Part shown: piece after piece, positions 4,924 through 43,876 of the stretch
Position numbering within the stretch: position 1 is the first letter of the stretch
Layout: each line of letters opens with the position of its first letter
IMG/VR virus record: IMGVR_UViG_3300044620_001883
Span: 1-64,000 of that record
Reading direction: 5' to 3' (one strand)
Length of the DNA stretch: 64,000 bases
From: a virus
Lineage: Duplodnaviria; Caudoviricetes
The notes under the pieces: generated by a model
Seen by the model: only the letters and a program-made list of their open reading frames with translations
Databases searched by the model: none
What the model was told of the DNA's origin: nothing
Translations under genes and position numbers: made by a program

Positions 4924-5280
4924 ATGAAACACATCCTCCTTATCCTGCTCACCTGTACTGCAGCTATCTCTACCCTCCATGCCGTCGACCCGGTCGTGGT
5001 AGTTCGCAGTGCCACCAGTGTCACGGTAGACGGTATCGACTACGGCAAACCTGTCGACGCCATTGCGAACAACCCACAGCTCACCTCACCTATCCAACGC
5101 GCCCTTGAGGTTTGGGTAGCTGGTGTTGTGGCGGCCCAAGCAGAAGCTGAGGCGCAGCGAGCAGCCGAAGCTGCCAAGATTCGCGCGATCCTGAGCGCGC
5201 GCCTCACGGCCGAGCTCGCTACCGGAGACGGGCCCAAAGCTGCGCTCATTCGGGAGATCCAGGCCGCTCTCGAAGAGTAA
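4924..5280 (+). CDS. Small protein with signal-peptide-like N-terminus
   Basis: ATG 4924: MKHILLILLTCTAAISTLHA|V, followed by an Ala-rich helical C-terminus. Confidence 0.6.
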   Translation: MKHILLILLTCTAAISTLHAVDPVVVVRSATSVTVDGIDYGKPVDAIANNPQLTSPIQRALEVWVAGVVAAQAEAEAQRAAEAAKIRAILSARLTAELATGDGPKAALIREIQAALEE

Positions 5281-5302
5281 CAAACCACACACCCACACCC
5301 TA

Positions 5303-5713
5303 ATGAGCGTACGCCCTCTTTGGCTCGAATCGACCACATTACCCGCGGATGGTGCCCCATTGCGCCTCAAGACCGGTGCTACCGGGGAGGTGGAGGAGGG
5401 AGCTGCAGCCGCACCGTGGACCACCCTCAGTGTGGGGGACACTGGAGCCACCCTTGTGAACAACGCGCGGCATCTGGTGAATACCACAGGCGGTGCAATG
5501 AGCCTTTACTTACCAGGATCACCAAGCGCCGGTGCGAACGTCCGGTTGCTGGATGCCGTCAGGACGTGGGTCTCGAACAACTGCACTGTTTTAAGGAACG
5601 GCGCTCTCATTGAAGGTGCCACTGATGATCTCGTCCTCGATGTCAGCGGTGCCTGTGTGGAGCTTGTCTACAGCGGCGCTGCCTTTGGCTGGCGCGTCAT
5701 CCTCACCCCATAA
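5303..5713 (+). CDS. Phage fibre-associated domain protein
   Basis: NTTGGAMSLYLPGSPSAG.NV.LLDA...NN.TV.RNG..IEG..DDLVLDV.GA.VELVYSG..FGW, a module I recognise from myovirus fibre/baseplate proteins. Confidence 0.6.
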   Translation: MSVRPLWLESTTLPADGAPLRLKTGATGEVEEGAAAAPWTTLSVGDTGATLVNNARHLVNTTGGAMSLYLPGSPSAGANVRLLDAVRTWVSNNCTVLRNGALIEGATDDLVLDVSGACVELVYSGAAFGWRVILTP

Positions 5714-5719
5714 AACGGC

Positions 5720-6082
5720 ATGTTGCTCTCGGCTTCATTTCTCGACAACGCCAAGGTTCCCGGTATCGCGGGCCCCCCTGGACCTACGGGGCCCGACGGC
5801 ACAGCGGGCGAACCGGGTCTGCCTGGATCACCTGGACCTGCAGGAGCCGACTATGCTGGCCCGCCGGGCGAACCTGGCAGCCCAGGTGCGGCTGGGCCTG
5901 CGGGGAGCCTGGGACCACCAGGACCGGCTGGTCCACCGGGAAGCGACGGCGCAACAGGCCTCGATGGTGAAGTAGGTTTACCCGGAGGGTTGGGAGAAGA
6001 ACCAGGACCACCAGGACCTAGCGGGCCGGTGGGTCCTCCAGGACCACCAGGACCTGACGGTCCCCCAGGTCCGCCGGGCTAA
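5720..6082 (+). CDS. Collagen-like protein 1 (120 aa, 34 Gly-X-Y triplets)
   Basis: 14-aa leader, then Gly-X-Y triplets with two short interruptions; GPP-rich C-terminus. Confidence 0.9.
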
Positions 6083-6103
6083 CTGCGCAACCTTACCAAT
6101 CAC

Positions 6104-6460
6104 ATGATCTCACTTCGTTCCCTCGTTGTTCATACAACTGCTCCGCCAGGACCACCAGGCCCGTCGGGCGCGCCATCACTGTCAAACGGTACGCCTGGGC
6201 TGGATGGTGCCGAAGGTGCGCCTGGTATGCCTGTTCCTGGTCCTCCAGGTCCAGCAGGCGACATGGGAACTTCGGGCGATCCTGGAACCGAAGGCCCACC
6301 CGGACCGACAGGGACAGACGGCAACCCAGGTGCACCAGGAGCTGTCGGACTCACGGGTATCCCCGGACCTCCAGGTCCTCCAGGACCCGATGGACCTCCA
6401 GGACCCGATGGACCTCCAGGACCGGAGGGTCCCGCAGGTCCTCCAGGAACACCTCCCTAA
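6104..6460 (+). CDS. Collagen-like protein 2 (118 aa, 32 triplets)
   Basis: 15-aa leader, then Gly-X-Y triplets including an uninterrupted run of 24. Confidence 0.9.
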
Positions 6461-6486
6461 ATCCCACCCCGCACATCTTCTTCATC

Positions 6487-6837
6487 ATGACCCTATCCAC
6501 CTTACGACCTGTTTTTGTCGGCAATCCTGGCGAACCAGGCACAAGCGGAACTCCAGGAACTGCGGGTCCAGCAGGATCTCCGGGCAGTCCGGGAGCTGAT
6601 GCGCTGGTGCCGGGGCCTCAAGGCGGTCCCGGCGACTCTGGCCCACCGGGTCCTCCAGGCCCTGATGGTTTGCCGGGTCCTCCAGGACCTCCGGGTACCG
6701 ACAACGGGTACGCGGGGATGCCAGGATCTCCGGGGGCACCAGGACCGCCTGGAGTTGGTCCCCCTGGGATCGAAGGCCCTCCCGGAGCGGCTGGACCTCC
6801 AGGACCTCCAGGACCTCCAGGACCCCCTGGCGCGTAG
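6487..6837 (+). CDS. Collagen-like protein 3 (116 aa, 32 triplets)
   Basis: 11-aa leader, then Gly-X-Y triplets ending (GPP)4GA. Confidence 0.9.
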
Positions 6838-6876
6838 GGTAATACCGTTTAAGCGACAGCCCACCATACAAAACTT

Positions 6877-7251
6877 GTGCTCACACCAACCAGCGAGATA
6901 CTCCCAGACCAAATAGGACCTGCGGGTCTTGCTGGTTCGCACGGTCCCAACGACGGGGCGTTCCTGTGTGAATGCATTCGCGGCGCCATGCCACAATTAC
7001 TGCGCGCCTGTGAATTTTACGTGGGCTACTCGCACCACCGCAACCTGACACCAGAACATCCTCTTGTGGTCGCCATAGCGGCGCTTGAAAAAGTCTACGA
7101 GCAGCACATCCATTCTGCAAACATGCTGCACGATCCTGAGTTGTTTCACATCCCGGACACATTGTTCCAGACCCCGACCCAGTACTGGGGCTACCCCGAA
7201 CCAATTGACACACAAGCTCCGACTGGTATGGATGATGCCCATAACCCCTAA
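6877..7251 (+). CDS. Hypothetical protein between the collagens and the dioxygenase
   Basis: Fills the operon gap; GTG start; no recognisable motif. Confidence 0.5.
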   Translation: MLTPTSEILPDQIGPAGLAGSHGPNDGAFLCECIRGAMPQLLRACEFYVGYSHHRNLTPEHPLVVAIAALEKVYEQHIHSANMLHDPELFHIPDTLFQTPTQYWGYPEPIDTQAPTGMDDAHNP

Positions 7252-7263
7252 TCCGACAAGCTC

Positions 7264-7845
7264 ATGAATGGCTGGTGGCGCGCATTTTACAATCAACTCA
7301 CTCCTGCCGAGTGTAATCAAGTAATCGAGTACGGGCTCACGCACACACCCGTGCAGGGCACCATCGGGCATGGCGGAGGTACGACTATCGTGCAGCCGGA
7401 TTTCAGGCAGTCTACCGTGCGGTGGTTCAAGCGGAGCGATCCGAAACTCCATTGGCTTTACCTGCGCATGGAGGACATGGCGTTGCAGGCGAACGCCATT
7501 TCGTTTGGGTTTGATATCGCAGGCTTCAGGGATGTGCAGTTCACCGAGTACGACGGTGCCAAGAAGGGCCATTACGACTGGCATGAGGACAATTGCTGGA
7601 AGGGTAGTACGCCGTATGACCGCAAGTTGTCCATGGTCATCCAGCTCTCAGATCCGACCACTTACAAAGGCGGACAGCTGGAGCTGCAGAATGACCCGTT
7701 CCACAACACCCCGGGCAACAAAGTTCTGGTGAATCAGGGGGATGTGATCGTGTTCCCGTCCCATAACCGCCACCGCGTCACTGACGTCACGGAGGGGATG
7801 AGGTACTCGCTCGTGACCTGGTTTATTGGTCCGCGTTTCAGGTGA
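7264..7845 (+). CDS. 2OG-Fe(II) dioxygenase (prolyl-hydroxylase/PKHD-like)
   Basis: QFTEY..GHYDWHED (HxD), RKLSMVIQLS, YKGGQL, GDVIVFPS..RHRV (distal His), RYSLVTW (2OG-binding Arg). Confidence 0.9.
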   Translation: MNGWWRAFYNQLTPAECNQVIEYGLTHTPVQGTIGHGGGTTIVQPDFRQSTVRWFKRSDPKLHWLYLRMEDMALQANAISFGFDIAGFRDVQFTEYDGAKKGHYDWHEDNCWKGSTPYDRKLSMVIQLSDPTTYKGGQLELQNDPFHNTPGNKVLVNQGDVIVFPSHNRHRVTDVTEGMRYSLVTWFIGPRFR

Positions 7846-7913
7846 CGATGGTTTGTCAGGGATGACCTGACCTTGGACATTTGTGCTATTGCTGAGCACG
7901 CGCATACGGGCGA

Positions 7914-8558
7914 TTGTTTGAATCTATGATCCCGCCTCCAATCCCTGGTATGTCCGTTGTCCCTGCGACACGCTGCGCCCAGCAGATGCCCCGTTTGCAA
8001 CCTGATGGTCTAGGCAGCATTCGTCTCTACACCGCCACGGTACCTGCTCAGGAATGTGCCGTGCACATCACGCGGGAGAGTCGGATCATTCTGTCAGACC
8101 CACGTGGCAGCCGAGTCTTTCAGGACGCAAACCAACAAGGCGCGCGGTATGCTTGGTTTGTCTTCCAACGTGGTGAGGCTTTGGAGCCCGGCATCTACCG
8201 GCTGAGCTGGCTGCGTAGTGACGGTGTTTTTGGGACGCGGGATTTCGAAGTGCCTGACAGCCCGTTCCACCCGGGGTCCTCATTCGACCTTGCATCGGGT
8301 GCTCGTGATGGTTTTTCGGTGGAGCTGATTTATCGGGGGCACACGATTCTTCCAGCCAATGAGACCTCAGTTCTGCTTGAAGCCCCCTTCGAGCTGAATC
8401 CTATTTACCACCGCCCCGCCTGGGCAATCCTGGCCACAGGTAACAAAGTTGTACCGGGTGTCTCGCTGGAGATCACCCACACGTATCCCAAAGCCTGGCG
8501 TGTGACCTGTTCGCCGGTATCAGACGTGGAACGTCGCATCGACTGGGTTGTCTACTGA
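7914..8558 (+). CDS. Hypothetical protein, beta-rich
   Basis: 214-aa ORF continuing the operon; no motif recognised. Confidence 0.55.
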   Translation: MFESMIPPPIPGMSVVPATRCAQQMPRLQPDGLGSIRLYTATVPAQECAVHITRESRIILSDPRGSRVFQDANQQGARYAWFVFQRGEALEPGIYRLSWLRSDGVFGTRDFEVPDSPFHPGSSFDLASGARDGFSVELIYRGHTILPANETSVLLEAPFELNPIYHRPAWAILATGNKVVPGVSLEITHTYPKAWRVTCSPVSDVERRIDWVVY

Positions 8559-10954
8559 GCAACAGGCTGAAGATGCGGAGGCTCCCCGTAATACGTTTCC
8601 AGCAACGCGAAGGCCGAGTAGGCGTCAATCTCGATACGGTTGCCCTGATGCACCACCACATCGTCTGCGAGCCGCCGGAGTTCTAGTTCCAATGAGATCA
8701 TGTCCAGCTCGTCAGAGAACCGGTCAGCGTCACAGAAAACCTTCTGGGCCTTGAAGTCATAGCTAAAAATTTCAGCCACCTCCGTCTTGGGTATCTGCTG
8801 CAGCAGCTGCTCCGTCCATTCAAAGGACGGTGTGTCCGCCTCAAGTTCCAAGCCGCAGTAAGTGTGTAGAAACTCGCGCGCGCATGAGATCAGACTGTTC
8901 GTGTACAGAACGGATTGCTGCTGCTGCCACTGATGCGGCTCAGGTAAGGCCAGAAGTGTTTCACACACCCGCCTCACCAAACCCCTCAGGGTCTCAGCCG
9001 CGCGCCCCAAGACTTCCTCGGAATGCTGCTCCCGGACGATCTGGCCGTGGTCGCAGAGCAGGAAGTAGGGGGCGTGGATTTTGCCGGTGACGCGCCCAAC
9101 TGTGGCCCACACGGGGTACTGGTGGAGCCCCTCGGCGTCGCGTTCCACGCGGGAGACCGGACGGATCTGCCCGAGGCCGCGGAACAGTCCCTCCAGGAGC
9201 CCCGCCGCCGGCCCGTCATGGCGGACCTGCACGGCCTGCAGGCGCTCCCCACGCTGGCCCCGGATAATGGAGCCCAGGATCATGAGCATGAAGGTCTGGA
9301 CCTCTCGGGGCAGGTCCAGATCGATCGCGGCATCGAGATGCTTCTCGGCCGAGAAAGCATCTAGGGCCTGGACATCGGGGTGCAGTGGGAAGTCATCCTG
9401 GATGATGCCGTCCATGCCAATGATGGCCCCGGCAGTAAAGAAGGTGTCGCGTTTGAAGTTCCAACCCAGGAACGGCAACCCGATGCGGGTGCTCAATCGT
9501 GGCAGTGTCCCCCGCAGATAGAAGGCCACGCTCCGGAACGCACTGGGGTCCCGCAACATCGGAACCAGGAGGCTCTTCCCCGCAGCCAGGAGTAACTGGA
9601 TGTGCTCCTGGAGCTCCCGGGGCGAATCGAGTAGACGACCCGGCAGGATCATGTCCTGCTGGACATCCCCAATCAGGACCGAGGCCCGGTGGTGCAGGGC
9701 CGCCTTCTCCCCGAATGTCACGTTGCCGTCGATCCGGACAATGAAGTTGCTGAAGAGTTCCAGGGGACCACCACCACGCCTGACCCCATAACCCTCCGGG
9801 GTCTCCAACGTGATGGTCCGGTCAGTACGGGCGATTTCGATGCTGTACAGGGATCGGGCCAGTTGGTCTGCCGCTCCAACAAACCCGGCACTCTTGAGCC
9901 GTCCATGGAGTGCTTGCTTGAGCCACCCCTGTGGGTTGAAGGAACCCAACAGTACAAGACCCTGACTGGTCAAGCTTGAGCGCCGGATGTGCCGCTTCAG
10001 GACTCGGAACATGAAGTCATCGAAGCCCACCGGAGAGCCTGCCCCCATCGCGACCTTGATGTCCGGCCAAGCCCGCTGCATCCGGGCAATCAGGGTCGTC
10101 GATGTGTGTTCGTCGTGTTGGGCCACGAGAGCCGGGAGATCCGGCACCGTACTGTCGCCCTGCCCGAACAGGCATGTCAGCGAGACCGTCAGGGGATCCT
10201 GTACACGCCACCGGCTATTTTGAATCCCGGCCGAGATCGCAGTGTCATGGAGGTACACCTGCTGGGCGGTCGGGGATAACATCCTGAGCCCCGCGACGGC
10301 CACCCGGTAGTTGGTGAAGGGAATAGTAGTCTGCCAAGTTCCTCGGGGGTTCGTCAGCACAACCGCAGAGAGTGCGTGGGCCTTCTCCCAGTAGGCAATC
10401 ATTAACAACGGGGCCTCAGGTGGGAGCTTGGGCTCTGGCAACCCCAACGAGGTAAGCAGGGTCATGAAGGCTGGACGTTCCGCAGGTAGCATAACACCAA
10501 TGAGATGCTGCCCGGGATCGTAGATCCCGAGTTGCTGAAGCTCGGCCAACACGGAGGCCCTGAGACCATTGACATCCAGGGGAGCTTGCAGCTTTCGCAC
10601 GTACTGACATAACCGCCGACGCATTCGGGCTTGGCTGGTTATGAGTGGTACAAAGTTCTCAGGAGTGAACTCAGGACAGCGTAGAATGCGGTCTTGGAAC
10701 AGTCGCAGAAGTTCCTCGAGACCCTTCGCGTAATCACGATGCTTCGCAGACGCAATCTCAACTACGGACCCGGCCAGCATCGGACAGCTGTTATTCTGAC
10801 ACAGGTAGCTGTCGGACTGGATCCAGAGATCTGCACCGCAGTACGGACAGTCCATGATGTAACAATCATTGAGACGTCGCGTGCTGTACCCCAGGTACTC
10901 GGCAGTCTCGAGTGGGCGAATCAATTGTTCCAGTTGCTCCAGGGATTCAAACAT
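8552..10954 (-). CDS. Large protein with N-terminal Cys4 zinc finger; possible degenerate primase/helicase-associated protein
   Basis: CPYC...C.N.SC near the N-terminus; central FSNFIVRI...FLGWN..FF segment reminiscent of DUF927-type domains; no intact Walker A or TOPRIM motif seen. Confidence 0.45.
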   Translation of the reverse strand: MFESLEQLEQLIRPLETAEYLGYSTRRLNDCYIMDCPYCGADLWIQSDSYLCQNNSCPMLAGSVVEIASAKHRDYAKGLEELLRLFQDRILRCPEFTPENFVPLITSQARMRRRLCQYVRKLQAPLDVNGLRASVLAELQQLGIYDPGQHLIGVMLPAERPAFMTLLTSLGLPEPKLPPEAPLLMIAYWEKAHALSAVVLTNPRGTWQTTIPFTNYRVAVAGLRMLSPTAQQVYLHDTAISAGIQNSRWRVQDPLTVSLTCLFGQGDSTVPDLPALVAQHDEHTSTTLIARMQRAWPDIKVAMGAGSPVGFDDFMFRVLKRHIRRSSLTSQGLVLLGSFNPQGWLKQALHGRLKSAGFVGAADQLARSLYSIEIARTDRTITLETPEGYGVRRGGGPLELFSNFIVRIDGNVTFGEKAALHHRASVLIGDVQQDMILPGRLLDSPRELQEHIQLLLAAGKSLLVPMLRDPSAFRSVAFYLRGTLPRLSTRIGLPFLGWNFKRDTFFTAGAIIGMDGIIQDDFPLHPDVQALDAFSAEKHLDAAIDLDLPREVQTFMLMILGSIIRGQRGERLQAVQVRHDGPAAGLLEGLFRGLGQIRPVSRVERDAEGLHQYPVWATVGRVTGKIHAPYFLLCDHGQIVREQHSEEVLGRAAETLRGLVRRVCETLLALPEPHQWQQQQSVLYTNSLISCAREFLHTYCGLELEADTPSFEWTEQLLQQIPKTEVAEIFSYDFKAQKVFCDADRFSDELDMISLELELRRLADDVVVHQGNRIEIDAYSAFALLETYYGEPPHLQPVAQ

Positions 10955-15638: not shown

Positions 15639-16181
15639 ATGGGTACAGATAGTGCTGCATCATTCACTCCTGTACCCCACCATGTCGTACTTCGGCGTTC
15701 CTGGTTTTTACCGACGTGGGAAGGTTTGCGGTACAAAGAGGCGCCCGCGAAACATCCACGACTGAAGACCCCCTTCTCCGGTGTTGTGAACTTCTCCACG
15801 CAGTTACCGCCCATGGGCAAGCCCTACCCGGTTTTGAACCAAGTGGCGTATGACATGATGCGTAGGCTTCGCCGCGAACTCTCATGTGACATGCCTCCAA
15901 TGGATGAATCCCGCCATGGGGAGGCTTGGTTGGATATACACAACGGAGAACCCTTGGGATGTGTGACGATAAACATGGAAGCAGGCGAGCGCTTTTTGCT
16001 TGGTGCCTGGGTGCGGCCTTGTAGCAGGCGACAAGGGATCATGACGCGTTTGCTGGGCGCCGTCGCATGCAAGTACGGCAGCTTGCGGGCCATCCGACCG
16101 TCCCCGGCAATGAGAAACCTGCTAGCCCTTGACCACCATTCCCCGGAAAGCCGCCATGTTGCCGGTGTGGAGCCCACCTGA
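15639..16181 (+). CDS. GNAT-fold acetyltransferase-like protein
   Basis: LGCVTI...LLGAWVRPCSRRQGIMTRLL matches the GNAT acetyl-CoA-binding motif (V.P..R.QG). Confidence 0.6.
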   Translation: MGTDSAASFTPVPHHVVLRRSWFLPTWEGLRYKEAPAKHPRLKTPFSGVVNFSTQLPPMGKPYPVLNQVAYDMMRRLRRELSCDMPPMDESRHGEAWLDIHNGEPLGCVTINMEAGERFLLGAWVRPCSRRQGIMTRLLGAVACKYGSLRAIRPSPAMRNLLALDHHSPESRHVAGVEPT

Positions 16182-19100
16182 GGAACCATTGAGCTGGTCG
16201 TTGACGTAGTTGCGCAGATTCGGATCGTCGAACATGGGCTCCTTGAGCAGCAGCCGCGCTAGCACGAAGGCGAAGTTGACGGCATGCATGGTGTCGTCCG
16301 CCTTCGTGGAGTTGCGGATATGCAGGAAGTACTGACGCCCGTGACGGGTCTCGGCGTGCACACGCTGGCTGTTCAGGAAGTCATCCAAGTAAGGTTGGGC
16401 TGCGTCCCAAGCGTAACAGCGGATGCGCTGTTTCTTGATGGCTTCAAACAACTGCGTGATCGACTCAGTTTTGTTCAGCATGTACTGGGCTGGGAACTGC
16501 TGGAACTGCGGACGCGTGATCATTGGCAGATAGGGTGGAGAATAACCCCAGACGAAGTGCCGGTTGGGGTTCACACGCGCGTCGCGGTGGAGATAGGTGT
16601 TGTAGGCAAGCCCCGCGCCGAAGTCACTCGCAATCGCGGTGCCGCCGTATTCTGCGTGGGCCTTCAAGATGGACTCCGCGATTTCATCGTACTGCATACC
16701 CGAGTAACGGCGCATGTACAGGATGTCCATTTTGCCGTCTCCGTAGACACCCAGGATGATATGCACCGTGTAAGACGTCTTGGTCAGCCGGGACATCTGC
16801 GCGTCGGAGCCGCCCCAGTCACAACCGCTGACAATGAACCGATACGGGTTCTTGCTCTTGATGGCTTTGTGCAGCTGCGAGATGTCCCGGTAGGGGAGGG
16901 TGCAGATCGCCTGCAGATCCTTCTGGTTGATTTCTTTGAAGCCTTCCTCGGTTGCGATACCCCCAACTTCCTGCAAGGTCCTGGTCTCGCCGAAGTCCTG
17001 CAAGTACTTGAAGATCTTGGGCCACTCCTTGGGTGTCAGGAAGTCTGGAATCAGAAACTGTGGGATATGGATCCCGAGGATATTCTGATCGAGCTTGTGG
17101 GGTGCGGCGTGGGCATAGACACCATTTAGGGGGTTTGTAATCAGCCGGTCCGTGAATGGACACGTGAGACCCTTCTCCCGGATCATCTTCAGGACCTGTA
17201 CGCCGTCGGAACAGTCGATGAAGTCCTTGCCGTTCGGACTGCGCATCATCCACACGCCACCTGAACTCTGCTGGAACCGGTGCTCCAGTGGGCTGTCGAT
17301 CGTCGTCGAGGTACCGCTGTAGACCGTCACCGGGTTGCTGGTGTTGCGCTGCAGCTGCCGGATTTCAGCCTCAAGTCTGATGTCGAACAACTGATACTCA
17401 TCGTAGAGCAGTTCGTCGGCGGTTTTACCGCGCATGTGGGCCGCGCTAGTGAGCACGCGGTGCAGCTCGATGCGGCTGCCCGTCTTGTACTCCTTGAACT
17501 GCAGATTGTTGCGGAAACCCTTGGTCTCCAGGGAGTAACGGAAGCAGCGCTCCATGTCCCGCAGTTTGGTCGCGTAGGTCTTGATGTGATCCAGGTGCGG
17601 TGCGATGTAGATCGACACCCACGGCATCAACTGGGTCAGGATCAACTGCCGGGCTGACATATTCGTGGAGTTGTGACTCACGACTCCATTGATGACGTAG
17701 CTGTGGTGTCCATCCACCTCAATGTCCCACGCCGGTAGAGTACCAAGAGGTTTGATGCTACGTACTGAGGTCCAAGTTACAGGACCTTCAACAAGGTTAC
17801 GCAGCTGTCGGAACAACAGGCCGGGTCTGCCGTGCCTCTCAACGTAACCCAGCAGCGCGCGCAATTTGCGTCGCGTATACGAATTGGAGCTGTGCAGCTT
17901 CAACCCGATTGCCCGGTTCATACCCTTGATGGAAATGCGTTTGCCTGGAATACATGCTTCCTTCAGGACAGCGTGGATAAGTGCATGATACGAACCAGGC
18001 AACACGTCCTTGTTGCTGTTGGAAACCGTGGACGTGATACGCTCGGGAAGACGGTTCATCTCCTTGCCTGGAACCTGAAACAGTTCAATGAAAGTCTGCC
18101 AACCCTCACGACTTTCAATGCGCACAACATGCGCGTCACGGCAACGTTTGTACACACCATCCTTTTTGTACCCAGCCTTGACTGTGCTCAAGGATGAAGG
18201 CAAGCCGAACTTCCACAAGAGAGCCTGAACCCCTTCGGCCAATTTGCGGGAAGTGGACGAATACGTGATTTGCATCATCGTAGCCGCTGGTTTCACCATA
18301 CCATCCGTCGCCCACAGGTAATTGATGAACTCTATAGTGTCCTCAAAAGAAAGGTCAAAGACCCAAGCTGGGATCTGTTTATCCCAGGCATACTTGCCTA
18401 TCAGGTTGTCCTCAATGGCCCATTGCAACACTTCACCATCTCGGTTGCAGGCAATATGCACTGCATGTGTTCCCTTCTTATCATGGACCCGCACAGGGCG
18501 AGCTTGGCGTGGAGTGCAAATGCGCACAAACTCATCACGCAGTGCAGCATTGGCAGCGGTGAAACTGACAGTCCGATCTACCGTACTGCCATCGCCCAGG
18601 ATCATGGCCAGCAGGCGAATCCGATCCAAACCAGGGACCGCAGTGCCGGTGAACACCCCACCTTGACGCACATCCGCTACGAAATCGCCGACTTTCAAAT
18701 CTCTCACTTCTTTCCAGCCTTCGGGAGTGAGAAGTCGGTGGTTGTCCGACAGTTTAAGTTGCGCACCAGACCGCAGAGAAACTTCGCTGCACGGTAGTAC
18801 TCCCGCTTGGTGGACTGCCTGCACAGTGTGTTCACACAGTGTGTGCTCGTGGGGGTTCACACCGACTAGACGCATACCGGCTTTCAGGTCAGCCGGGTAG
18901 CATGGTAGCCCGTTGTGCCCCATTACAGGCTCATTTGCACCAACGACCCGGCATTTACTGATCTGCCGCGAACCCTTGATGACCAAGTACCCCTGGGTCA
19001 TCATTGAGTACATCGGAAAAGCAAACGGCCGCCGGCTCAGTGTCATAGGTGTGTTGGGCCCCCCGAAGTGGGGGAAGAACCAAGGTAACAAGAAGCCTGT

Positions 19101-40450: not shown

Positions 40451-43400
40451 ATGAACGGCATGCTTGAGAAACTCACAGATATGGAGCAAACCGAACAACC
40501 TTACCCGTCGTTTCCAGCGCCGACTCCCGAGCCGGAGGCAGCCACGCCGAAGGTGTGCGCTGAACCTTTTGAAGTGCCGGAGAATTGGAACGTTAGCAGA
40601 CGTCATCAGGATCGAGTTGTGGTGGCCGGCCGAGGGTCCAAACAATCCTCCATCATGTTCCTCTCCAGCAGTGTTCTGGAAGAGGAGGTGCTGGAGGAGG
40701 AGCAGGGTACCTACGGGGCTGTGTTCAAACGCAAACCTGCGTACTTGAAAGGCCCGCACGGCGCGGCTCTAAAGGACATGTGTATGTCCGTGGGTGTAGC
40801 GGTTGACAGTGACGTGTACTACACGGCGGTGTGCAAATGGTTGCTGCCCAAGGAGACACGGCTCAACCCCAAGGCAGGGGACATATCCCCCGGTCTGGCG
40901 TGTCTGCGGCGTGAGCTGACGGAGGTAAAGCCCAAGATTGTGGTGGCTTTCGGCAAGGCCGCCTTCGAGTTCTTGGTGCCGATACGGTTCAAATTTGGCG
41001 ATGCCATCGGGGCCTGGTTCTGGAGCGATGAGTTCCAGTGTCGCGTCATGCCCATGAACCACCAGTACTACGTGGCGGCCAAGCCTGAATGGATGGAGCG
41101 GTTTCGGATGGACATGGCCCAGGTGAAACAGGCCCTCGACGAATCTCGGGGTATCCTGGTCAACAGGATACCGTTGCATTACCGAACTGTCACGAACGCC
41201 GCGGAACTGCGGCAGCTTGTAAAGGACCTGCAACCATACAAGCTGCTATGTCCTGACTGTGAGTGGCACGGCAGGAGCCACGCATCAGGCCAGTTGCGTT
41301 CGCTCCAGATTGGCTGGCTGCCGGGGCATGCGGCGTACATCAGGTTCATGGACGACAAGCTCAACTACGTCTTTGACGTGGACTACCGGGCGGCCGGGGC
41401 GATTCTGGCGGAAGTGTGGGATCAGCCGGACGTGGAGCTGGTCGGACATCACATATCTGCGGATTTACCCTGGCTTGCGGAGTGGTTAGGATTGACCTGG
41501 TGGGGCAAGACAAGACTTGATACTGAGTTCGCGTACCAGTGCTGCAACGAACATGGTGACCGCGGGTTGGAGCGTATGTCCCTCCGGTACACAGATCTTG
41601 GCAGGTATGAGATGGAGCTGGAGTTCTGGAAGAAGGACCACAGGGCGGACGTGGAGGGTGGCTACGGTCTGATCCCGGATGAGATACTGATCCCCTACGC
41701 TCTCCGGGACGTTGACGTCCCGTTGCGTGCTCTGCCTTACATCGAGAAGGACTTAGAGCAGCAGGGCATGCTTGAGTACTACCGGACGATCATGAACCCG
41801 TTTGTGACGGATGTGTTCACGCAGTTCGCCATCACGGGGCTGCCGATGAACATGGAGCTCATGGATGAGATGCGCATGTTGTACGGGTTCGTCTACCAGG
41901 AGATGGAGCGGATCTTCCGCGACAACATCTACGCAGAGGCCTGGTTGCTACTGGCGCGCAATGCGGTGGAGATGCTGCCGAACCTCAAGGGGCTGGAAGA
42001 CGCGGAGCTGCGGCGCACGCTTGCAATATCTGTATCGAGTTCCTGGGGGCCCAGGCTCCGGCAGGTCTACGAGGACGCCATGGCCGACGCAAAGGACGCG
42101 GCGGCGGCACTGCGTGTTTTCTTGCAAGAGTCCATGGGACTGCCGTTGGAATCTCTCTCAAAGGAGGAGGAGCGCTGCATTGTGCAGTCCATTGAGCACG
42201 CCCACGGGGCTGCCGGTTTCAATTTACGCTCCGTGACGGACATGCGGCGTTGGTTGTTTGATGTGAAAGGTTACACACCAGTCAAGAGTACTGCCAACAA
42301 AGCCAAGGGGGTACCGGCCACAGACTGGGCAAAGGTGATGTCCTGGAAGCCGGCAAAACGTGAAGGTCTCGTGCCGGCCGTGGACAAACAAACTTTGCAG
42401 ATCCTCTCGGCCGCCAACCAGGATCCGGTATTGATGGAGTTGCTGGAGCTCAATGCGGTGGGCAATATCCGGAAGGCTTTCCTGAAGGAACCGGAGCGCA
42501 ACGAGGCGGGGGAGATTACGGAGGAGGCCGGACTACACGCGTGGGTGGCACCAGACAAGCGGGTGCATGGGCAAATGTCCATGACGGAGACATCCCGTCC
42601 GCGTGCCTGGAATCCGAACAGCCTCAACTGGCCCTCATATGTCCAGGATCGGATCCTGTCTGGGATGGCGCGCATCCTGGAATATGTTCACGCAGAAGGC
42701 AGACTTCCCGCCATTTTTCAGAAGTACCTGAAACAGAAATTGCCAGCTCTGCGGCACTGCGTGCAAGCTCCGCCTGGTCTGTGTTTTGTGGAGTCCGACT
42801 TCCAGACAGCCGAGGTGCTGGGCCTGGCGTACATTTCGGGTGATGAAAATTTGATCCGGATCATGACGGAACCGGATCAGCAGTTCGCGATCACAACCAA
42901 GGGGGAGAAGGTGCGGGTGGGTTATGCCAGCGACTGTGGTATTGCACCGCGAGCGCAGGAGCAGCGTTTCATCATGAGTGTGTGGGAAGAGGGCAAGTTT
43001 ATACGCAACGTTCAGGAATCTGAGCTGAAGCGAAATCCGGACGGTTCTCTGCGCCATCCCAAAGCGGATCTACACTGGTCCCTGGCGGAGATGTTCCAGG
43101 AACGCCCGCGCGAACTGATGACCAACAAGAAGGACCGAGGAGCCGGAAAAGCTGGCAACTTCAAGACAGCATACGGCTCGACGCCCGGCACACTGGAACG
43201 CAGTATTGAGGCGGACACAGGCTTCAAGCCGGAGCCCGGTACTGGGGAGAAAATCCTGACAGCTTTGGAGAAGCGCCAACCAAAAGCTGTGGCGTTCCTG
43301 AACGCGCAGGAAGACAAGGTTCTGGATCCTGGTTACTTGCGTGCAGCATCAGGTAAACTGCGGCACTTTGTGGCACCCCCGAACGTGTACGGGCTATCTA

Positions 43401-43876
43401 GCAGTTTGACCCGGTCGATCATCTCAGCACAGGCTCGTGAGGCGAGAAACTACTTCATGCAGGAGTCGGTGGCGGCTACAGCTCTTCGGGCTGCGTACTG
43501 GCTGATGCAGTTCAAGCGGCGGTACAACCTCGAGGGTGTGCCTATTACGGTCCTGTACGACAGCGTGGTCACCATGTGCCCCTACCACGAGCGAAAGCTG
43601 TGGGCCAAGGCGCATGAACTGTGCATGTACAGAGCCAACGGGTGGGAGTACCATGGACGCGTTCTGAACTACTCGATCGACACGGAAGTCAATGCCGGGT
43701 GGTCGCTGCCCTACAAGTACGTACCAGGGCAGCGTCATATGGACGCGCTGTTGTCGCGTGACGAGTACGCGCCCACCCCTTCCCATTTACGGGCAGCAGA
43801 AGCATGGTTGGATTCGTCGAATGAGTTCTTCAAGCAGAACCCTCGCGCGAGTCTGAACACGTGCTTGTTCAGCTAG
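40451..43876 (+). CDS. polA: Family A DNA polymerase with N-terminal UDG-like domain and 3'-5' exonuclease
   Basis: UDG-like YYTAVCKW...RELTEVKPKIVVAFGK; exonuclease DCE, GHHISADL, YALRDVD; polymerase TETSR..NPN, SDFQTAE (motif A), R...KAGNFKTAYG (motif B), LYDS (motif C). Confidence 0.9.
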   Translation: MNGMLEKLTDMEQTEQPYPSFPAPTPEPEAATPKVCAEPFEVPENWNVSRRHQDRVVVAGRGSKQSSIMFLSSSVLEEEVLEEEQGTYGAVFKRKPAYLKGPHGAALKDMCMSVGVAVDSDVYYTAVCKWLLPKETRLNPKAGDISPGLACLRRELTEVKPKIVVAFGKAAFEFLVPIRFKFGDAIGAWFWSDEFQCRVMPMNHQYYVAAKPEWMERFRMDMAQVKQALDESRGILVNRIPLHYRTVTNAAELRQLVKDLQPYKLLCPDCEWHGRSHASGQLRSLQIGWLPGHAAYIRFMDDKLNYVFDVDYRAAGAILAEVWDQPDVELVGHHISADLPWLAEWLGLTWWGKTRLDTEFAYQCCNEHGDRGLERMSLRYTDLGRYEMELEFWKKDHRADVEGGYGLIPDEILIPYALRDVDVPLRALPYIEKDLEQQGMLEYYRTIMNPFVTDVFTQFAITGLPMNMELMDEMRMLYGFVYQEMERIFRDNIYAEAWLLLARNAVEMLPNLKGLEDAELRRTLAISVSSSWGPRLRQVYEDAMADAKDAAAALRVFLQESMGLPLESLSKEEERCIVQSIEHAHGAAGFNLRSVTDMRRWLFDVKGYTPVKSTANKAKGVPATDWAKVMSWKPAKREGLVPAVDKQTLQILSAANQDPVLMELLELNAVGNIRKAFLKEPERNEAGEITEEAGLHAWVAPDKRVHGQMSMTETSRPRAWNPNSLNWPSYVQDRILSGMARILEYVHAEGRLPAIFQKYLKQKLPALRHCVQAPPGLCFVESDFQTAEVLGLAYISGDENLIRIMTEPDQQFAITTKGEKVRVGYASDCGIAPRAQEQRFIMSVWEEGKFIRNVQESELKRNPDGSLRHPKADLHWSLAEMFQERPRELMTNKKDRGAGKAGNFKTAYGSTPGTLERSIEADTGFKPEPGTGEKILTALEKRQPKAVAFLNAQEDKVLDPGYLRAASGKLRHFVAPPNVYGLSSSLTRSIISAQAREARNYFMQESVAATALRAAYWLMQFKRRYNLEGVPITVLYDSVVTMCPYHERKLWAKAHELCMYRANGWEYHGRVLNYSIDTEVNAGWSLPYKYVPGQRHMDALLSRDEYAPTPSHLRAAEAWLDSSNEFFKQNPRASLNTCLFS

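Follow-up and report, generated by a model that had tools for sequence, protein, structure and literature searches.

Three length-matched collagen genes beside a prolyl-hydroxylase-type gene in a jumbo phage, candidates for a co-assembled triple helix

The stretch of DNA analyzed here, hereafter the window, corresponds to the first 64 kb of the IMG/VR virus record IMGVR_UViG_3300044620_001883, a jumbo phage genome of 200,255 bp from a lake, with an estimated completeness of 98%. Between positions 5720 and 6837, the window carries three tandem genes for short collagen-like proteins (chains A, B, and C), and downstream of them lies a gene for an oxygenase of the prolyl-hydroxylase type. The comparison with related loci shows, at the level of sequence, a constraint under which very divergent chains stay matched in length, in the position of the interruptions of the Gly-X-Y repeat, and in the local density of proline, with their number held at three. 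Co-folding of the chains is favored here because it is the simplest account of these four features, and we give an even chance to a reading in which they form a hydroxylated triple helix of about 30 nm, of A-B-C or mixed composition, that is part of a virion fiber. In this reading, we infer the formation of the triple helix, the chains that compose it, its hydroxylation, and its location in the virion from the evidence described below.

The three collagen chains and their co-variation within genomes

The chains and the interruption that they share are located as follows, with lengths in amino acids (aa).

5720..6082, + strand: collagen chain A, 120 aa, with a 14-aa leader and a 106-aa Gly-X-Y part; interruptions GADYA and GEEP
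5843..5857, + strand: shared interruption in chain A (GADYA), residues 42-46, 75-79 from the C-terminus
6104..6460, + strand: collagen chain B, 118 aa, with a 15-aa leader and a 103-aa Gly-X-Y part; interruptions GAPSLSN and GMPVP
6224..6238, + strand: shared interruption in chain B (GMPVP), residues 41-45, 74-78 from the C-terminus
6487..6837, + strand: collagen chain C, 116 aa, with an 11-aa leader and a 105-aa Gly-X-Y part; interruptions GTDN, GADALVP, and GV
6592..6612, + strand: shared interruption in chain C (GADALVP), residues 36-42, 75-81 from the C-terminus

Each of the three genes starts with ATG, with gaps of 21 and 26 nt between them, and the products match the Pfam Collagen family (PF01391) with 55.4, 54.4, and 49.6 bits (cut-off of 27.2; E-values of 3e-13 to 5e-15), as anticipated by a preliminary description of this DNA, which had proposed three tandem genes of 120, 118, and 116 aa. 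No further collagen matches are present in the 200,255-bp record. The numbers of triplets given in that description (34, 32, and 32 for A, B, and C) are reproduced by a run count, and a strict parse yields 32, 30, and 30 perfect triplets plus 2, 2, and 3 interruptions, respectively. The leaders, announced as being of 11-15 aa and found to be of 14, 15, and 11 aa, are short and hydrophobic; a function as Sec signal peptides was rejected because they are too short. Moreover, the layout in which every gene has its own ATG and a short leader recurs in three related loci (L008, L090, and L088/L089), so the sequences indicate that A, B, and C are real and separate genes.

At the C-terminal end, the final eight triplets or so of each chain are rich in Gly-Pro-Pro, and the chain ends no more than one or two residues after the last triplet. 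Also, scanning the chains with Pfam and PHROGs revealed no domain outside the Gly-X-Y repeat, in agreement with the Gly-Pro-Pro-rich C-termini and the missing trimerization domain reported previously. Thus, the window chains have neither a non-collagenous trimerization domain of the kind found in Scl, BclA, and EPclA nor the non-collagenous domain by which heterotrimeric collagens select their chains and set the register. With the latter they do share distinct chain genes with matched lengths and interruption levels. The interruption common to the three chains, placed at residues ~39-46 in the preliminary description, is indeed present (residues 42-46 in A, 41-45 in B, and 36-42 in C), but further interruptions (GEEP, GAPSLSN, GTDN, and GV) had been left unlisted. 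In chain C, the offsets introduced by GTDN (+1) and GV (-1) cancel each other.

Regarding composition, proline occupies the Y position in 44-62% of the triplets, a frequency at the level of animal collagens, and threonine in 0-6% of them. The collagen parts contain no lysine or arginine, acidic residues being the only charged ones. Considering the high content of proline at Y, the absence of basic residues, and the neighboring gene with a predicted prolyl 4-hydroxylase (P4H) fold, the chains do not fit a stabilization by charged or Thr-rich triplets free of hydroxyproline. At the nucleotide level, the GC content at third codon positions is 0.35-0.46 in the three collagen genes (AT-rich third positions) and 0.64-0.73 in the neighboring genes at 5303-5713 and 7264-7845. 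This could reflect an offset to the GC-rich Gly and Pro codons, the avoidance of repeats, or a foreign origin of the cassette.

Related loci were recovered by using an alignment of oxygenase homologues as the query over viral contigs, JGI metagenomes, and GTDB genomes, which gave about 160 loci. When viral contigs were searched with one protein alone, either the oxygenase or the 800-aa neighbor encoded after it, nothing was recovered, and a blastn comparison of window positions 5000-8600 with deposited phages gave no match. The matches of chain A in a protein search were dominated by unrelated collagens of eukaryotes and actinobacteria, with no true relative among them. The loci closest to the window carry chains without end domains, as the window does, and this bare-chain sample comprises four loci (the window, L008, L090, and L088/L089), two of them cut by contig ends, plus the single chain of L169. 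L008 has the same gene order as the window, i.e., a fiber-domain gene, three bare collagens (140, 142, and 137 aa), the oxygenase, and then an 800-aa gene on the opposite strand, the latter being only 23% identical between both loci. L090 contains one chain cut by the contig end followed by chains of 110 and 108 aa, L088/L089 contains one cut chain and one of 121 aa (at least two chains), and L169 has its single bare chain at the contig end. Then, tandem bare chains are found in every member of this close clade, and exactly three are present in both uncut loci, the window and L008. The L169 locus, whose oxygenase is 70% identical, was binned with a Polynucleobacter metagenome-assembled genome (MAG), which is a hint about the host.

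A second clade carries collagen genes before the same type of oxygenase, in sets whose chains have domains at both ends.

L021:5105-7976, L031:5213-7979, and L032:4750-7980: end-domain three-gene sets

In these phages (L021, L031, and L032/L033), there are exactly three genes, each encoding an N-domain of 55-64 aa, a collagen part, and a C-domain of 130-156 aa. The C-domain belongs to no known family in Pfam or PHROGs, and it is predicted to be a β-sandwich (predicted local distance difference test (pLDDT) of 78) with weak fold matches (best E-value of 3.7e-3) to the fiber heads of adenovirus and reovirus and to a pyocin fiber, which is only a hint. In the tree of the C-domains from L021, L031, and L032, chains 1 group together across phages with a support of 93/97 and chains 3 with 97/96. 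According to this grouping, each chain has a one-to-one orthologue in the other phages, the triplication predates the divergence of these phages, and the three collagen parts lengthened together afterward.

Considering all the complete loci, 28 have one collagen gene and 5 have three, with none having two or four. Accordingly, copy number does not vary freely among relatives; free variation is what the preliminary description had regarded as contrary to co-assembly. The 28 single-gene loci of the collagen-linked clade include Prosthecobacter-type prophages. In the single-gene clade (L009:4098-5446 and similar), a 4-nt overlap between the collagen gene and the start of the oxygenase suggests translational coupling, and the C-termini of the collagens are of three interchangeable types, with a ~85-aa domain, with a short tail that contains Cys, or with neither. 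A pair formed by one collagen-with-C-domain gene and an oxygenase (L171:5661-7564 and L170) is found both in a chromosome of 6.17 Mb, within a region that resembles a prophage, and in a Prosthecobacter MAG, another hint about hosts.

Because MAFFT gave no sensible alignment of the chains, triplets and interruptions were parsed from the C-terminus instead, and matching within genomes was judged over seven genomes, six of them with at least two chains. The lengths of the collagen parts are 106, 103, and 105 residues in the window, 127, 127, and 126 in L008, and 94 and 93 in L090; for the end-domain sets, they are 107, 105, and 107 in L021, 117, 113, and 112 in L031, and 155, 145, and 145 in L032. 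The spread of lengths within genomes is smaller than that of chains shuffled among genomes (permutation p = 5e-5). Moreover, the interruptions, counted from the C-terminal end, overlap in 84% of the within-genome comparisons versus 55% of the between-genome comparisons (p = 2e-4), and the smoothed profiles of proline density correlate with a mean r of 0.32 within genomes versus 0.03 between them (p = 2e-4). In L008, all five interruptions coincide across the three chains. There, when interruptions are of unequal length (e.g., 5, 5, and 10 residues), the segment that follows has a compensating number of triplets, which reduces offsets of up to 6 residues to 1 or 2. Hence, the conservation of the three-gene set and of length matching, which had been proposed as a check of co-assembly, turned out favorable, with close relatives keeping the set while lengths and interruptions co-vary.

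Outside the Gly and Pro columns, the chains of one genome are 7-21% identical, which equals the between-genome level (i.e., the sequences are saturated). Since this identity is the same within and between genomes, recent duplication or gene conversion was rejected as the source of the matching. The collagen cassette changes faster than any other part of the locus. For example, when L008:5500-10000 is compared with L088/L089, the DNA is 90% identical over the oxygenase and downstream of it, and this similarity is lost right at the 3' end of the collagen genes. Also, the C-terminal segment has 14-16 residues in both visible L089 chains versus 28-29 in L008. These comparisons point to a cassette that is either hypervariable or exchanged as a unit, like receptor-binding genes. 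Some kinship between chains is hinted at by leaders and interruptions: A and C of the window resemble two of the L090 chains, and chain 3 of L008, chain 2 of L089, and the L169 chain have a common leader type and interruption lengths of 7-5-5-5-10. Finally, a tape-measure role of the chains was rejected because close relatives differ in this length, with values between 93 and 127 residues.

The neighboring oxygenase and the operon

The chains are flanked on the same strand by two genes, with a spacer before the second one.

5303..5713, + strand: fiber-domain gene, 136 aa, with one ~85-aa phage-fiber repeat domain (about residues 50-136); it ends 6 nt before chain A
6838..7263, + strand: spacer of 426 nt that holds a GTG-started ORF (open reading frame) of 124 codons at 6877-7251
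7264..7845, + strand: 2-oxoglutarate (2OG)-Fe(II) oxygenase of the prolyl-4-hydroxylase (PKHD) type, 193 aa (Pfam PF13640, E = 4.5e-17)

The product of 7264-7845 is named PKHD-type hydroxylase in the sources. The residues corresponding to the iron triad and to the basic residue that binds 2-oxoglutarate (His107-x-Asp109, His170, and Arg180) do not vary among 13 homologues, and the nearest Protein Data Bank proteins by sequence profile are PiuC, 3dkq, the chlorovirus prolyl 4-hydroxylase 5c5t, and a P4H from Chlamydomonas. The AlphaFold model (pLDDT of 82) has as its top fold matches 3dkq, the Pseudomonas P4H 4iw3, PHD2, and 5c5t, with TM (template modeling) scores of 0.6-0.69. Thus, according to the model, this protein has a prolyl-hydroxylase fold.

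The association of this enzyme with collagen is conserved. Where the oxygenase is at least 50% identical to that of the window and enough upstream DNA is available, a collagen ORF lies directly before it in nearly every locus, with its end coinciding with the start of the oxygenase or no more than a few hundred bases away. Other genes stand between both in L013, L098, and L105, and no collagen ORF was found in the L104 oxygenase locus by the criterion used. In total, about 35 loci from phages, prophages, and metagenomes show the linkage. The oxygenase tree groups the collagen-linked enzymes in a single clade of 37-38 rows with a support of 83-84, and the enzymes of the window, L008, L089, and L090 make up a subclade of it with 100% support; the window enzyme is 56% identical to a Prosthecobacter protein. 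From its fold, its conserved adjacency, and the substrate-like composition of the chains, we infer that the oxygenase is the presumed hydroxylase of the Y-position prolines in A, B, and C. The proximity of a prolyl-hydroxylase-type gene, a link missed in the preliminary description, means that the stability of the chains has to be read differently.

Regarding the upstream gene, the 136-aa protein has PHROG tail-protein matches. Its ~85-aa domain has no Pfam family and gave 9045 matches in a representative library, with up to 15 copies per fiber protein in proteins of up to 4242 aa. A gene with this domain also directly precedes the collagens in L008, and in L039 the domain is embedded among collagen stretches. 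In addition, tail-fiber-like genes flank the module in the window and in L031/L032. Given the fiber-repeat domain upstream, the flanking tail-fiber-like genes, and the resemblance of the C-domain of relatives to fiber heads, a virion fiber would be the most likely setting of the collagen rod.

No promoter-like or terminator-like site was found between the genes, which are therefore probably co-transcribed. No Shine-Dalgarno sequence was found before any gene of the operon (gene starts within window positions 5278-7263), and the 25 nt ahead of each start codon are C/A-rich. The gap between the last collagen gene and the oxygenase is only 80 nt in L008, so the 426-nt spacer of the window is probably an insertion. 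The ORF at 6877-7251 has no relatives among those searched and is absent from L008; for these reasons, a role as fiber chaperone was rejected, and it is doubtful that the spacer or its ORF is part of the system.

Beyond this module, the window contains genes for a large terminase with an intein, a family A DNA polymerase, helicases, and tail-fiber-like proteins. The large terminase subunit (16122-19271, - strand) is split by an intein with a LAGLIDADG homing-endonuclease domain, and a single protein of 1141 aa encoded at 40451-43876 combines a family A DNA polymerase with an N-terminal domain of the uracil-DNA-glycosylase superfamily and a 3'-5' exonuclease.

Co-assembly and its alternatives

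In the reading favored here, the chain genes would be co-transcribed with the fiber-domain gene upstream and the oxygenase downstream, and three different α-chains would fold into one helix, either A-B-C or at least as mixed trimers. The rise of the collagen helix is usually 0.29 nm per residue, so a helix of ~103-106 residues would be a shaft of roughly 30 nm. The oxygenase would convert Y-position prolines into hydroxyproline, which would supply the stability, as chains free of lysine and arginine cannot form salt bridges. Moreover, the Gly-Pro-Pro-rich C-termini would nucleate the helix, with zipping proceeding toward the N-terminus, and a helix that zips from a C-terminal nucleus could be the reason why the interruptions align when counted from that end. 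Finally, the hydrophobic leaders, and perhaps the 136-aa fiber-domain protein, would fix the rod to the virion as a tail or surface fiber. A more specific form of this proposal can be put forward only tentatively: a natural A-B-C heterotrimer that registers itself with no dedicated domain or charge pairs, in which chain selection and register are encoded by the interruptions and by proline-rich and proline-poor zones, and in which a phage enzyme produces hydroxyproline in the bacterial cytoplasm.

Several points weigh against co-assembly. To our knowledge, the only mechanisms that specify a heterotrimer are a chain-selection domain and Lys/Arg-Asp/Glu pairs, and the window chains have neither of them. 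Also, Gly-Pro-Pro-rich ends should nucleate promiscuously, and matched lengths and kinks would be selectable in homotrimers that stand side by side or in bundles as well. In the window itself, just one interruption is common to the three chains, and the one-residue insertion GEEP of chain A is not matched by any in B. There are few loci with bare chains, two of the four being truncated, and the co-variation statistics come from permutation tests in which chains were shuffled among genomes and phylogeny was ignored. Furthermore, one-to-one orthology of the bare chains is hinted at only by short similarities between leaders, the sequences being saturated, and independent triplications are possible. 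In the case of the enzyme, its substrate is assigned by association, and loci with an oxygenase at most 44% identical mostly lack collagen. The A-B-C co-assembly proposed in the preliminary description thus stands in part: a constraint ties the three chains together, but a strict A-B-C trimer is not thereby established, because homotrimers or mixtures would leave much of the same signal.

Among the alternatives, the one that best survives is that each chain forms its own homotrimer (AAA, BBB, and CCC), giving parallel rods of equal length, fiber variants with different partners, or a lateral bundle, so that the matching would reflect a shared geometric constraint. This is a possibility to be taken seriously, even if we consider it rather unlikely. 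All the characterized prokaryotic and prophage collagens are homotrimers (PMC8968730, PMC3368898), the window chains have no chain-selection domain or charge pairs, and the relatives with a single gene must be homotrimers, i.e., this type of collagen can fold in that way. However, a geometric constraint explains total length more easily than the residue-level alignment of interruptions, the compensated offsets, and the matched proline profiles. Moreover, every complete multi-gene locus has exactly three genes, and the order of the three orthologous chains is maintained in the end-domain sets, which is also the case in C1q.

Another scenario is that unselective Gly-Pro-Pro nucleation leads to promiscuous trimers (AAB, ABC, BCC, and so on) and to heterogeneous fibers, for example, with a varied surface chemistry. 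The co-variation that argues for a defined heterotrimer applies equally in this case, since the chains must stay compatible in register, and there is no visible determinant of selectivity. Nonetheless, random mixing gives no reason for exactly three genes, and the long maintenance of three distinct orthologous chains in the end-domain sets suggests three defined positions. Based on this, we regard promiscuous mixing as improbable.

Finally, it is very hard to sustain that the proteins are not triple helical, acting as flexible proline-rich spacers, as non-structural proteins, or as one long chain produced by readthrough or frameshifting. A and B are in the same frame, split by a single TAA plus 21 nt, but C is in a different one. 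The pair of chains sharing a frame is not the same in L008 as in the window, the two L090 chains that are complete do not share one, and each chain begins with an ATG and a leader of its own, so the single long chain was rejected. Moreover, a glycine at every third residue over ~100 residues in all the chains, despite saturated divergence, is the signature of triple-helix selection, and the linkage to an enzyme with a prolyl-hydroxylase fold also fits a triple helix.

Comparison with known systems

A triple helix of co-assembled chains in the animal style, if confirmed, is not known for bacterial or phage collagens. In that case, three chains of ~120 aa and a 193-aa hydroxylase would constitute the smallest natural system for studying how collagen chains choose partners and register, and a compact toolkit, expressible in bacteria, for hydroxylated heterotrimeric collagen. 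More generally, the linked loci point to a habit that would be widespread among freshwater phages and has not been described, namely, fibers of animal-style collagen stabilized by an enzyme. A search of the accessible literature found no paper that pairs a phage prolyl hydroxylase with collagen genes.

Regarding collagens outside animals, the Gly-X-Y repeat proteins Scl1/Scl2, BclA, and EPclA from an Escherichia coli prophage are the obvious comparison, and EPclA and many PHROG collagen families are phage tail-fiber proteins. Prokaryotic collagens are described as homotrimers with no hydroxyproline and as Thr-rich or charge-rich (PMC8968730). In particular, Scl1/Scl2, BclA, and EPclA are single-gene homotrimers with trimerization domains (V domain, PCoil, and PfC), with threonine or charged residues at Y, and with no hydroxyproline (PMC8968730, PMC3368898), which agrees with what the preliminary description had stated about characterized prokaryotic collagen-like proteins. 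In contrast, the window has three genes, no such domain, proline at Y in 41-62% of the triplets, almost no lysine or arginine, and an adjacent presumed hydroxylase. The products belong with the phage collagen-like fiber proteins, and what is new is the conserved domain-free set of three chains together with a dedicated enzyme of the prolyl-hydroxylase type.

Viruses that encode a single-domain enzyme with the P4H fold along with proline-rich or collagen-like structural proteins are also known, such as chlorovirus PBCV-1 (vCPH, 5c5t) and mimivirus (L230); the mimivirus collagens with the L230 hydroxylase are named in PMC8968730. Unlike the phage described here, those viruses infect eukaryotes. 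Moreover, the window oxygenase is only about 16% identical to 5c5t over the fold alignment, being nearer to bacterial PKHD hydroxylases (PiuC, 3dkq).

Another comparison is given by the designed A-B-C heterotrimer peptides of the Hartgerink laboratory, cited in PMC11923368. Like the phage chains, these peptides are short and have no folding domain, so composition and register must reside in the Gly-X-Y sequence. However, the designed peptides use axial Lys-Asp and Lys-Glu salt bridges. Lys-Glu and Lys-Asp clamps are found across collagens (PMC11923368), and the window chains lack them; then, the phage chains would need another code, for example, the interruptions or the leaders.

Finally, by analogy, the closest functional counterpart of the window set would be C1q or another heterotrimeric animal collagen, although the set is not a member of that group. 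As in C1q and type IV collagen, three adjacent paralogous genes encode chains with length-matched collagen parts and interruptions at the same level, proline is common at Y, and there is an enzyme of the prolyl 4-hydroxylase type. Unlike them, the window chains have no globular or non-collagenous domain for chain selection and registering, and no lysine, hence no hydroxylysine, sugars, or salt bridges. Also, they are phage products with collagen parts of only ~105 residues, and share no homology with C1q beyond the Gly-X-Y repeat. The chains of the three-gene relatives with end domains even have a predicted C-terminal β-sandwich head, and this set resembles a phage counterpart of C1q.

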